Of a stretch of DNA of 64,000 bases, positions 12,704-56,642 are shown piece by piece. Under the pieces are notes generated by a model that saw only the letters and a program-made list of their open reading frames with translations, did not search any database and had not been told where the DNA came from. Source of the stretch: Escherichia coli (lineage in GTDB: Bacteria; Pseudomonadota; Gammaproteobacteria; Enterobacterales; Enterobacteriaceae); assembly GCF_016026235.1 (NCBI RefSeq), contig NZ_CP065613.1. One strand, 5' to 3'. Position 1 is the first letter of the stretch; each line of letters starts with the position of its first letter. Position numbers and translations under genes: made by a program.

Positions 12704-12801
12704 GCCTGATGCGCTACGCTTATCAGGCCTACATTTTCTCCGCAATATATTGAATTTGCGCGGTTTGTAGGCCGGATAAGGCGTTCACGCCGCATCCGGC
12801 A
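12704..12801. repeat. BIME: two REP elements (gcctgatgcgctacgcttatcaggcctac and gtaggccggataaggcgttcacgccgcatccggc)
   Basis: Canonical E. coli REP palindromes between convergent uvrB and ybhK. Confidence 0.85.
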
Positions 12802-14029: not shown

Positions 14030-14160
14030 CATAACCACTAAACACTCTAGCCTCTGCACCTGGGTCAACTGATACGGTGCTTTGGCCGTGACAATGCTCG
14101 TAAAGATTGCCACCAGGGCGAAGGAAGAAATGACTTCGCCTCCCGTATCTGGAAAGGTGT
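14030..14160 (+). ncRNA. Moco (molybdenum cofactor) riboswitch region in the moaA 5' leader; boundaries approximate
   Basis: Long structured leader immediately upstream of moaA where the Moco RNA motif is known in E. coli; boundaries not computed. Confidence 0.45.
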
Positions 14161-14162
14161 AC

Positions 14163-15152
14163 ATGGCTTCACAACTGACTGATGCATTTGCGCGTAAGTT
14201 TTACTACTTGCGCCTGTCGATTACCGATGTGTGTAACTTTCGTTGCACCTACTGCCTGCCGGATGGCTACAAACCGAGCGGCGTCACCAATAAAGGCTTT
14301 CTTACCGTCGATGAAATTCGCCGGGTTACGCGCGCCTTCGCCTGTCTGGGCACCGAAAAAGTGCGCCTGACAGGCGGTGAGCCGTCTTTACGCCGCGACT
14401 TTACCGATATCATCGCCGCTTTGCGGGAAAACGACGCTATCCGCCAGATTGCGGTCACCACCAATGGTTACCGTCTGGAACGCGATGTGGCGAACTGGCG
14501 CGATGCGGGACTTACTGGCATTAACGTCAGTGTCGACAGTCTGGACGCCCGCCAGTTTCACGCTATTACCGGGCAGGATAAATTCAACCAGGTCATGGCG
14601 GGGATTGATGCTGCATTTGAGGCCGGTTTTGAGAAGGTCAAAGTCAATACCGTGCTGATGCGTGATGTTAATCATCACCAGCTCGACACCTTTCTGAACT
14701 GGATCCAGCATCGCCCTATCCAGCTGCGTTTCATCGAACTGATGGAAACGGGCGAGGGCAGCGAGCTCTTCCGTAAGCATCACATCTCTGGTCAGGTTCT
14801 GCGTGACGAGCTACTGCGTCGCGGCTGGATCCACCAATTACGTCAACGCAGCGACGGTCCCGCGCAAGTCTTTTGCCATCCAGATTACGCCGGAGAGATT
14901 GGCCTTATCATGCCGTATGAAAAAGACTTCTGCGCCACTTGCAACCGCCTGCGCGTTTCCTCCATTGGTAAACTCCATCTCTGCCTGTTTGGTGAAGGCG
15001 GCGTTAACCTGCGCGATCTGCTGGAAGACGATACCCAGCAACAGGCGCTGGAAGCGCGTATTTCAGCGGCGCTGCGGGAGAAGAAACAGACCCATTTCCT
15101 GCATCAAAACAACACCGGTATTACGCAAAACTTATCGTACATTGGCGGCTAA
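14163..15152 (+). CDS. moaA: GTP 3',8-cyclase (radical SAM), 329 aa
   Basis: ORF 14082..15152 trimmed to [31 protein letters not shown]. Confidence 0.95.
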
Positions 15153-21232: not shown

Positions 21233-21990
21233 AAATGAATCTCCGCACTTAAAGGGGCATGATCAGAAAGGTGTCGCCATGTCCGCAGCGGCAACGCGGT
21301 TGGCGCGCTGGCGCTGGCATTTTTGACGTAGATCCTGTCCAGTCGTAGTAGAGGAAATTGCACCGGAAACGTGCGCGCTGGGCGTCCGTGGGCGCGGGTA
21401 AAAATCTCATCCAGTCCGGCCTGCACTTTTAACGGATGATTAGCTTTTTGCTGCCAGTCATTGAAATCACCCGCCACCAATACCGGTTCGCCGTCCGGTA
21501 GCTCATTCACCCATTCGGCGAGCATCGCAAGCTGCGCCTGACGGTGCGCCTCACGCAGGCCCAGATGTACGCACATCACATGAATCGCTTTTCCGGTCAT
21601 CGGCGGCACAATGCGGCAGTAGAGCACGCCGCGCTTTTCCGCACCATCGACCGAAACATCGCGATTCTCATAATGTTCAATGGGATAACGCGACAGTACG
21701 GCGTTGCCGTGATGCCCTTCCGGGTATACGGCATTGCGACCGTAGGCAAAATCGCTCCACATAGTGTCGGCGAGAAACTCGTAGTGCGAGGTATCGGGCC
21801 AGTTTTCCACATGCAGCGGATGAACTTCGTGCGCGCCCATCACTTCCTGCAGGCAAACAATATCGGCGCTGACGGTACGCACGGCATCGCGAAGTTCCGG
21901 CAAAATGAAGCGTCGGTTAAACGCGGTAAAGCCTTTGTGAATATTGATGGTGAGCACCTTGAACGAAAATTGTTGTGTTTGATCGGGCAT
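21229..21990 (-). CDS. ybhP: Endonuclease/exonuclease/phosphatase-family protein, 253 aa
   Basis: ORF 21229..21990; overlaps the clsB start. Confidence 0.85.
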
Positions 21991-22122
21991 AATTTTCCTG
22001 TCTTTGCCTCTTATCTCATTGAAATAGTGTAGTCGGCGTCACAAAAAGGTGCGGTCTTACGGAATTTTCCGTAAAGTTCGGTACTCTGAGTAAGTAGAGA
22101 TAAATTCTTCAGGAGAGAAGCC

Positions 22123-22533
22123 ATGAAGTGGCAACAACGTGTTCGTGTCGCAACGGGTCTAAGTTGCTGGCAGATTATGTTGCATTTACTGGTAGTGGCG
22201 CTGCTGGTGGTGGGCTGGATGAGTAAGACTCTGGTTCACGTCGGCGTGGGATTATGCGCACTGTATTGTGTCACGGTAGTGATGATGCTGGTGTTTCAGC
22301 GCCACCCCGAGCAACGCTGGCGTGAGGTGGCAGACGTGCTGGAAGAGCTGACCACGACCTGGTATTTTGGCGCAGCGCTGATTGTGCTGTGGCTGTTGTC
22401 CCGCGTACTGGAAAACAACTTTTTGCTGGCAATTGCAGGGCTGGCAATCCTTGCCGGCCCGGCGGTAGTGTCTTTGCTGGCGAAAGATAAGAAGTTACAT
22501 CACCTTACGTCTAAACATCGCGTACGCCGCTGA
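22123..22533 (+). CDS. ybhQ: Inner membrane protein YbhQ, 136 aa
   Basis: ORF 22123..22533; its 3' end overlaps convergent ybhR by 39 nt. Confidence 0.8.
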
Positions 22534-23601
22534 CCCTGTCGTGGCCGTTATCACCAGTAGCGGCCACAAACTATTCCACACAATATCCAGACTCGCATCC
22601 TTCAAATAAATCTGCTTGGTAATGTCCGTAAAGTGGCGAATAGGGTTAATCCACGTCAGGTTTTGCAGCCATACCGGCATGTTTTCCACCGGAGAAACGT
22701 AACCGGAAAGGAGAATGGCGGGCATCATAAAGACAAACACGCCGATAAACGCCTGCTGTTGTGTTGAACAGAGTGATGAAATCAACAGACCGAATCCCAC
22801 CAGCGATAAACCATAAATCACCATCGTAAAGTAGAACAGCGCCAGCGATCCGGCGAAGGGGATTTGATACGCCCAGATACCAATCGCCAGCACAATGGTG
22901 GCCTGGAAGGTGGCGACAATTAACGCCGGTACGGCTTTGCCGATGAAGATCTGCCAGGTGGTGAGCGGCGAAACCAGTAGCTGATCGAGCGTACCTTGTT
23001 CACGTTCGCGGGCGACGGAAAGTGAAGTGACGATCATTACGCCGATAGTGGTGATCATGGCGATCAGTGACGGCACCACAAACCATTTGTAGTCGAGATT
23101 CGGGTTATACCAGTTGCGTACCACCAGCTCGCTGTTGTTAGGTTTCGGTTTTCCTTCCAGCAGCTCCTGCTGATAATTTTTGACGATCTGTTGCAGGTAG
23201 TTGGCGGCAATTTGCGCACTGTTGGAGTTACGCCCGTCGAGGATCAACTGCAAAGGCGCGGTCTGGAAGGTATCCAGTTTGCGCGAGAAGTCAGCCGGGA
23301 AACGCACCAGTAGTAACGCCTTTTGTGTGTCGATGGTTGGGCGGATCTCCTGTGGGCTTTTCAGCAGCAGCACATGAGTAAAGGCGCTGGCGCGGGCAAA
23401 ACGTTGGGTCAGCTCCACCGAATGCTCGCCGTTATCTTCATCGTAGATGGCGATGGTGGCGTTAGTCACTTCCAGCGTGGCGGCGAACGGGAACAGGATC
23501 ACCTGAATTAGCACGGGTAAAATCAGAATCGCGCGGGTTTGCGGTTCGCGCAGCAACGACTGCAACTCTTTGCGGATTAACGTCCATAAGCGATGAAACA
23601 T
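22495..23601 (-). CDS. ybhR: ABC-2 type transporter permease, 368 aa
   Basis: ORF 22495..23601. Confidence 0.9.
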
Positions 23602-29782: not shown

Positions 29783-29880
<98 letters not shown>

Positions 29881-35034: not shown

Positions 35035-35154
35035 GGACGTAGCGTAAACGCCTGATCCGTCCAACGGTTCGGATTTTGTAGGCCTGATAAGACGCGGTAG
35101 CGTCGCATCAGGCATCTGTTGCCGGATGCGGCGTAAACGCCTTATCCGTCCTAC
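35035..35154. repeat. BIME cluster (three REP-like palindromes) between ybiC and ybiJ
   Basis: gtaggcctgataagacgcggtagcgtcgcatcaggc and gccggatgcggcgtaaacgccttatccgtcctac. Confidence 0.8.
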
Positions 35155-56544: not shown

Positions 56545-56642
56545 GCCTGATGCGCTATGCTTATCAGGCCTACGCAGTACCTGCAATATATTGAATCTGC
56601 AGGACTTTGTAGGCCAGATAAGGCGTTAACGCCGCATCAGGC
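56545..56642. repeat. BIME / REP pair downstream of ybiT (preceded by hairpin gtcaccccg atactgt cggggtgac at 56495-56519)
   Basis: gcctgatgcgctatgcttatcaggcctac and gtaggccagataaggcgttaacgccgcatcaggc. Confidence 0.8.

Follow-up and report, generated by a model that had tools for sequence, protein, structure and literature searches.

We find that the genes ybhQ and ybhR of Escherichia coli share the last 39 nt of their coding sequences on opposite strands. This is very probably a genuine, long-conserved convergent coding overlap, in which each transcript ends inside the other gene through the action of Rho and the two mRNAs are partly duplexed. The window analysed here is a 64,000-nt stretch of E. 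coli contig NZ_CP065613.1, and positions refer to it unless stated otherwise. ybhQ (22123..22533, + strand, stop TGA at 22531-22533) encodes a small inner-membrane protein of 136 aa belonging to Pfam family PF11076, and ybhR (22495..23601, - strand, stop TAA, seen as tta at 22495-22497 on the + strand) encodes an ABC-2 type exporter permease of 368 aa. The shared stretch (22495..22533, both strands) holds YbhQ L125-R136 and YbhR S357-M368, which with the stops makes 13 codons per strand. The two sets of codons are in register, position 1 facing position 3, 2 facing 2 and 3 facing 1, and there are no free wobble sites in the overlap. A 39-nt overlap of the two coding ends had been proposed in a first-pass annotation, and it is borne out by the open reading frames and by the RefSeq annotation of the identical strain. 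The RefSeq annotation of K-12 MG1655 has the same 39-nt overlap (ybhQ 824630..825040, ybhR 825002..826108; the window coordinate is the MG1655 coordinate minus 802,507), and the locus was found in 5423 of 5426 complete E. coli genomes.

In a survey of annotated overlaps, convergent was the sole orientation in which long overlaps were judged possibly real, and 3'-end extension errors were found in 124 of 178 annotated convergent overlaps >60 bp (PMC2478687). On this precedent one of the two stops could be wrong, or ybhQ might not be a gene, so that no coding overlap would exist. For ybhQ/ybhR we consider such an artefact extremely unlikely. YbhQ matches PF11076 across the whole profile (2.4e-73, positions 1-132 of 132) and YbhR matches ABC2_membrane_3 (3.8e-51), both above the curated Pfam cut-offs, and orthologues of both are found across the Enterobacteriaceae. 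Both C-termini align end to end with those of the orthologues. The ybhR stop occupies the same position with or without the overlap, and each of the 63 overlapping species preserves the TGA or TAG stop of ybhQ by having the corresponding TCA or CTA in ybhR. Furthermore, ybhQ is transcribed and has a defined 3' end. Both members of the pair are real genes with correct stops, as a convergent overlapping coding pair requires.

The length of the overlap is not in itself surprising. In this register a stop on the + strand requires ybhR to have TTA, CTA or TCA, which together account for 4.3% of its codons. The probability that 12 codons are stop-free in the ybhQ frame is 0.59, and the length is therefore not beyond chance. 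What does exceed chance, to judge from the comparison of species, is the conservation of exactly 39 nt. We located both stops in 80 species loci that contain a gene for a YbhQ relative, taking a single genome for each species, all from the Enterobacteriaceae; 42 further, more distant ybhQ loci that were found lie outside this sample. The overlap is exactly 39 nt in 63 of the 80 loci and neither stop proved wrong against the orthologues, which disposes of the mis-assigned stop that the first-pass annotation had named as the outcome that would refute its claim. The genera with the 39-nt overlap are many and include Escherichia, Salmonella, Citrobacter, Leclercia, Kluyvera, Atlantibacter, Siccibacter, Yokenella and Superficieibacter, together with some Kosakonia and some Enterobacter. 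The ybhR stop, where it is TAA or TAG, always lies opposite a Leu of YbhQ (49 loci), and where it is TGA always opposite a Ser (14 loci). The ybhQ stop is TGA opposite a YbhR Ser encoded by TCA in 61 loci, and TAG opposite a Leu encoded by CTA in two. The TCA at ybhR codon -13 was considered as a sign of selection for the ybhQ stop and rejected, as TCA is the commonest codon there also in species without the 39-nt overlap (9 of 14 loci).

The remaining loci depart from this arrangement in three ways. In Kosakonia cowanii (one of the 80 loci) a Ser-to-Thr change in YbhR abolishes the ybhQ stop and the overlap is 48 nt; in 13 loci, Raoultella and some Kosakonia among them, the genes are separated by a gap of 2-206 nt; and three loci have damaged alleles. 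The overlap is thus not indispensable, since it has been lost in 13 of the 80 loci. In a neighbour-joining tree of ybhR the separated loci fall in about six places among the overlapping ones, on deep branches that are too short to trust. Probably the overlap is ancestral and has been lost more than once, the number of loss events being uncertain. Several alleles deserve mention in their own right. Escherichia albertii NBRC 107761 (L006, 529-576) has a premature TAG at ybhQ codon 16 with the 39-nt region and ybhR intact, and its ybhQ is likely a pseudogene in that strain. Kluyvera genomosp. 3 (L035) and Lelliottia nimipressuralis (L080) have each lost a single base of ybhR, independently, 30-45 nt beyond the ybhQ stop. 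One deletion falls in a C-run and the other in the 3' arm of the stem-loop described below; both shift to the same TAG and truncate YbhR, and the truncated genes could be true pseudogenes or assembly errors. In E. coli UTAK-1 (L002, 87.7% identity to the window) ybhR, ybhS and ybhF are all annotated as frameshifted, for which an error-rich assembly is a more likely explanation than biology.

The separated lineages suggest how an overlap of this kind may be resolved. In Raoultella the gap (L065 3436-3618, L067 3439-3644) holds one or two tandem copies of a repeat of ~100 nt, the core of which agrees with the ERIC2 primer (GTGACTGGGGTGAGCG) at 15 of 16 bases in L065. The edge of this repeat appears to encode the alternative YbhQ tail found there (...AANPxKHR), and a mobile repeat would thereby have provided YbhQ with a new C-terminus while moving the two genes apart. 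Elsewhere among the separated loci, the gap contains G+C-rich hairpins. In Phytobacter (L031 and L032, ~3400-3440) an inverted repeat (GGCGTAAGG ... CCTTACGCC) is made up of the 18-nt gap and the 3' end of ybhR, its loop containing the ybhR stop; part of the ybhR tail seems to have been duplicated in inverted orientation.

Comparison of the two protein tails indicates which reading frame leads. The YbhR tail, which ends in [VI][MA], is the same in overlapping and non-overlapping species, while the YbhQ tail varies by class and in the separated loci is either an unrelated ...FGLHQGGNAANPxKHR or a short ...PSKSFKV. The YbhR frame is therefore under the stronger protein constraint, and the YbhQ tail is largely dictated by YbhR. 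The basic KHRVRR end of YbhQ is largely the antisense of the Ala-rich end of the last membrane helix of YbhR, because GCG read backwards is CGC, an Arg codon. YbhQ does not seem to be a passive passenger for all that. In the inner half of the overlap (22513..22533, both strands), where YbhQ K-H-R-V-R-R-stop faces YbhR S-A-A-Y-A-M-F, both frames are conserved and the ybhR wobble positions are constrained. Wobble entropies of ybhR codons -13 to -7 are 0, 0, 0.28, 1.0, 0.52, 0 and 0.34 bits in the overlapping species and 0.95, 0.37, 1.26, 0.75, 0.95, 0.73 and 0.99 bits in the other 14 loci. It is this low variability opposite the YbhQ end that argues for a contribution from YbhQ. The outer five codons of the overlap vary freely in overlapping and other species alike, and among the YbhQ residues those at -7 to -2 are conserved and those at -13 to -8 (125-130) are variable.

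The overlap had also been said to leave no room for separate terminators, and this holds. There is no intergenic DNA, and a consensus scan finds no canonical intrinsic terminator after the ybhQ or the ybhR stop, just weak in-gene hairpins. The steady-state 3' end of the ybhQ mRNA, taken from the Term-seq data of Adams et al. 2021 (eLife), is at 22573 on the + strand (MG1655 825080), which is 40 nt beyond the ybhQ stop and lies 79 nt within ybhR. Supplementary file 1 of that study curates it as 'primary, antisense' (P:ybhQ A:ybhR) in two growth conditions, and the flanking sequence is identical to that of the window; no 3' end is reported for ybhR in these Term-seq data. Supplementary file 2 lists a Rho-termination peak on each strand, at coordinates that come from 800-nt windows and are approximate: one at 22675 (+; MG1655 825182), antisense to ybhR (score 3.95, p=5e-7), and one at 22422 (-; MG1655 824929), antisense to ybhQ and ~73 nt past the ybhR stop (score 3.85, p=2.2e-7). 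In the published data the ratio of downstream to upstream reads rises with bicyclomycin from 0.27 to 1.08 on the + strand and from 0.23 to 0.90 on the - strand. Termination is therefore Rho-dependent on both strands.

Two further features lie near the start of ybhQ. The Term-seq data include an ORF-internal 3' end at 22183 (+; MG1655 824690), 60 nt into ybhQ, with a Rho score of 0.6 and an intrinsic-terminator score of 4.9; premature termination or a short 5' RNA is possible. A perfect 8+8 palindrome at 22057-22074 (TTACGGAA-tt-TTCCGTAA) lies between ybhP and ybhQ, ~50 nt before the ybhQ start, and is followed on the - strand by a T-run 9 nt further on. It might bind a regulator, or form a hairpin that affects - strand transcripts reading through into ybhP.

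The ybhQ 3' end lies 6 nt after a stem-loop at 22541..22567 (+ strand; 11 bp, GUGGCCGUUAU / CACCA / GUAGCGGCCAC), which begins 8 nt past the ybhQ stop and is therefore in the 3' UTR of ybhQ and at the same time within ybhR codons 345-354. The tail after the stem is AAACUAUUCC, not a U-tract. As an intrinsic terminator the stem-loop was rejected on two grounds, namely this tail and the sensitivity of termination to bicyclomycin, and it is not an autonomous terminator. A precise end beside a stem without a U-tract, together with bicyclomycin-sensitive read-through, is the pattern of a Rho-dependent 3' end with a protective stem-loop, and we consider it most likely that the ybhQ RNA is trimmed by exonuclease back to this structure.

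We therefore favour an explanation in which the overlap is real and old and, for want of DNA between the genes, both transcripts terminate within the opposite gene. The final 12 codons of ybhQ are read from the strand opposite the final 12 codons of ybhR. Transcription of ybhQ continues into antisense ybhR until halted by Rho, and the RNA is then most likely trimmed to the stem-loop in ybhR codons 345-354 to give the precise 3' end at 22573. The ybhGFSR transcript continues into antisense ybhQ and is halted by Rho in the same way. The ybhQ and ybhR mRNAs are consequently complementary over ~150 nt, and some of them would form a duplex that is cut by RNase III. A regulatory consequence of the overlap is possible, and it is probably small.

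A stem-loop between convergent genes might also act in another way, as the bidirectional terminator described by Ju et al. 2019, where polymerases arriving from either side pause at the structure and are released, without Rho, by colliding head-on. The ybhQ/ybhR stem-loop does fold on both strands (mean dG -18.6 on the + strand and -17.5 on the - strand), and the class is found between convergent genes, lacks U-tracts and gives uniform 3' ends. Yet the class is described as Rho-independent, and here inhibition of Rho raises read-through about 4-fold, to ~100%, on both strands. The stem-loop moreover lies 46-72 nt upstream of the ybhR stop, and - strand transcripts ending there would be mRNAs without a stop. 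We consider a terminator of this kind very improbable at ybhQ/ybhR and retain Rho-dependent termination, followed on the ybhQ side by trimming, as the more satisfactory account.

Each of the 63 overlapping species has the stem-loop, at a dG between -12 and -22 kcal/mol. It is eroded in about five of the other 14 loci, K. cowanii among them, and is still strong in Raoultella, where the genes are separated. The difference between overlapping and other species is borderline (Mann-Whitney p=0.05, without correction for phylogeny). Across 64 sequences 92.8% of the stem cells are paired, a value that falls to 24-59% if the 3' partner is displaced by 1-3 columns. There is little covariation; two pairs have changed on both sides and most pairs are nearly invariant. 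The wobble positions are more telling. Codons -17 and -18 of ybhR, in the 5' arm, have entropies of 0 and 0.28 bits in the overlapping species, as against 1.41 and 1.15 bits in the other 14 loci. When the 27 conserved Ala codons of ybhR are ranked by wobble entropy, codons -17, -11, -18 and -9 take the four lowest places. Of the ~14 eligible codons (counted by eye) among the last 25 of ybhR, eight rank with the 20 least variable of 176 (hypergeometric p=1.3e-5). This synonymous constraint would be a stronger sign of selection on the stem-loop than the pairing data are. The structure is a local one: the 171-nt + strand region as a whole has no significant structure (z=-1.13) and only the stem-loop stands out, and the minus-strand fold is no better than that of shuffled sequences (z=-0.44). 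Upstream of the overlap the wobble positions of ybhQ vary freely (1.1-1.85 bits), so that no matching conserved element is seen for the 3' end of ybhR. An Rfam search gives no match within 21900..22900, even at E<=1. Elsewhere in the window the Rfam matches above the gathering score are a Moco riboswitch at 14031-14175 (+) upstream of moaA, one match to naRNA4 at 35081-35151 (-) and three to ES036 (CssrF) at 12725-12766, 29803-29845 and 56566-56608 (-), the naRNA4 and ES036 matches being probably REP-type repeats.

These data also bear on the possibility that the arrangement is a neutral relic. A deletion or the loss of a stop would have joined the ybhQ frame to antisense ybhR, and the result would have been kept solely because YbhR constrains the DNA, the YbhQ tail and the stem-loop having no function. 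A length within chance, the free variation of YbhQ residues 125-130 and the unrelated YbhQ tails of the separated lineages all agree with this, as does the fact that the arms of the stem-loop encode conserved YbhR residues (W-P-L...A-A-T). However, in the overlapping species the wobble positions of the ybhR codons that face YbhQ K-H-R-V-R-R, and of those in the stem's 5' arm, are much less variable than in the other 14 loci, and they are also less variable than those of other conserved ybhR codons, which is not what constraint on the YbhR protein alone predicts. We regard a wholly neutral origin and maintenance as unlikely, and prefer a conserved overlap in which the YbhQ end and the stem-loop may both be under some selection of their own.

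The two genes differ in their control. ybhR is the last gene of the cecR-ybhGFSR operon, which encodes an exporter controlled by CecR (YbiH) (PMC7190983), and ybhQ is a lone + strand gene between this operon and ybhP-clsB-ybhN, all of which are on the - strand. ybhQ is included in a published table of the sigma-E regulon (5-fold), and in Salmonella a sigma-E ChIP peak is located between ybhP and ybhQ. The converging transcripts thus answer to different signals, sigma-E on one side and CecR on the other, and this makes a coupling between them conceivable.

It had been suggested in the first-pass annotation that the overlap may couple expression, with antisense pairing as one means, and the pairing is supported at the RNA level. 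Complementary RNAs do exist. In the wild-type total RNA-seq of Huang et al. 2020 (mBio, Table S1c) the sense/antisense values in RPM are 111/5.0 for ybhQ, 14.2/24.0 for ybhR and 16.2/1.2 for ybhS, so that over ybhR antisense RNA exceeds sense RNA. The antisense reads over ybhR amount to 88-99 nt at the read density of ybhQ in all three strains, in agreement with an extension of 79 nt. In Table S1b of the same study, p19-captured RNase III dsRNA reaches 205-342 RPM on ybhQ and 230-354 RPM on ybhR, and 16-30 RPM on ybhS (four replicate datasets); the near-equal values for ybhQ and ybhR are consistent with reads from the shared region. The pair is listed by ExcludonFinder (NAR 2025, PMC12288877) among the 165 convergent excludons of MG1655, with the overlap seen in at least 50% of 58 transcriptomes, and on these published data the neighbouring transcripts do overlap as in an excludon. 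Elsewhere in the window, ybhN (~18.0-19.0 kb) has very high p19-captured dsRNA (434-1255 RPM in replicate datasets), and Adams et al. 2021 report a Rho region antisense to ybhN at MG1655 821989 (+), which suggests a strong antisense transcript over that gene. The sole other convergent coding overlap in the window, that of ybiO/rlmF at ~29797-29800 (locus L084 9250-9253), is 4 nt long, and this pair also appears in the published excludon list.

It is possible, if doubtful, that ybhQ-ybhR is an excludon in the functional sense, with the overlap kept for mutually exclusive expression. Induction of ybhQ linked to sigma-E would then lower ybhR and the output of the YbhFSR exporter, and the reverse, through collision of polymerases or RNase III cleavage of the duplex. 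The place of the pair in the MG1655 excludome, p19 dsRNA that is ~10-fold higher on ybhQ and ybhR than on ybhS, the excess of antisense over sense RNA on ybhR, the different signals to which the genes respond and the conservation of the arrangement all speak in its favour. Against it, the ybhR/ybhS RNA ratio is 0.88 in the wild type, 1.16 in rnc-14 and 0.91 in rnc-38, with no consistent effect of RNase III visible on ybhR RNA; both genes are weakly expressed, so that collisions should be rare; the genes are separated in 13 species; and constraint on two protein frames could by itself account for the conservation. We found no experiment on the ybhQ-ybhR pair in the literature. A bolder version, in which the ~80-nt stretch with its three layers (the YbhR end, the YbhQ end and a selected stem-loop) is an envelope-stress switch, such that ybhQ transcription trims the 3' end of the ybhGFSR mRNA and lowers YbhR relative to YbhS and YbhF, seems to us decidedly improbable. 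On balance we hold to an overlap that is genuine and conserved, with Rho ending each transcript inside the other gene.

The overlap itself is already known from the reference annotation, the published tables of 3' ends and Rho regions and the excludon list, and the idea of coupling is not new for this pair. What we add is the cross-genus conservation of exactly 39 nt, the pairing of stop codons with sense codons, and a stem-loop in ybhR codons that may be under extra synonymous constraint. The case is real but ordinary and has little import beyond the locus. It is nevertheless a clean, well-documented example of how an E. coli convergent coding overlap can be real and persist across genera, the signal for the end of one transcript being encoded within the codons of the opposite gene, and it could offer a setting in which to ask whether catalogued excludons regulate anything. 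If the coupling were true, a drug/ion exporter, of which YbhR is a part, would be tied through ybhQ to envelope stress.

There are 75 convergent pairs among the 663 overlapping gene pairs of the E. coli reference genome (PMC4161906), and ybhQ/ybhR resembles them in being a pair of annotated opposite-strand genes that share their 3' coding ends. It differs from most long convergent overlaps in the survey of PMC2478687, which are conserved just among very close species, whereas here the exact length is kept across genera. Among the convergent excludons of PMC12288877 the likeness is direct, as the pair is itself listed and its transcription units overlap in RNA-seq. However, excludons as usually described are 3' UTR overlaps that span a short intergenic region (mean 95 nt in E. 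coli), while in ybhQ/ybhR it is the coding sequences that overlap, and the pair is listed by virtue of its transcripts. The Rho suppression of antisense transcription described by Peters et al. 2012 is similar in that an untranslated antisense RNA is terminated by Rho, here on both strands; the ybhQ and ybhR antisense RNAs, however, are not spurious transcripts but the 3' extensions of two bona fide mRNAs. The closest parallel for the ybhQ 3' end is provided by Dar and Sorek 2018 (PMC6061677), who found that Rho-terminated mRNAs of E. coli end just past stable stem-loops lacking a U-tract, as a result of exonuclease trimming. ybhQ shares with these the stem-loop without a U-tract, the precise 3' end a few nt further on and the bicyclomycin-sensitive region further downstream. 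Unlike them, it has its stem-loop, to which the RNA would be trimmed, inside the coding sequence of the opposing gene, and the structure is therefore also constrained by the codons of YbhR.
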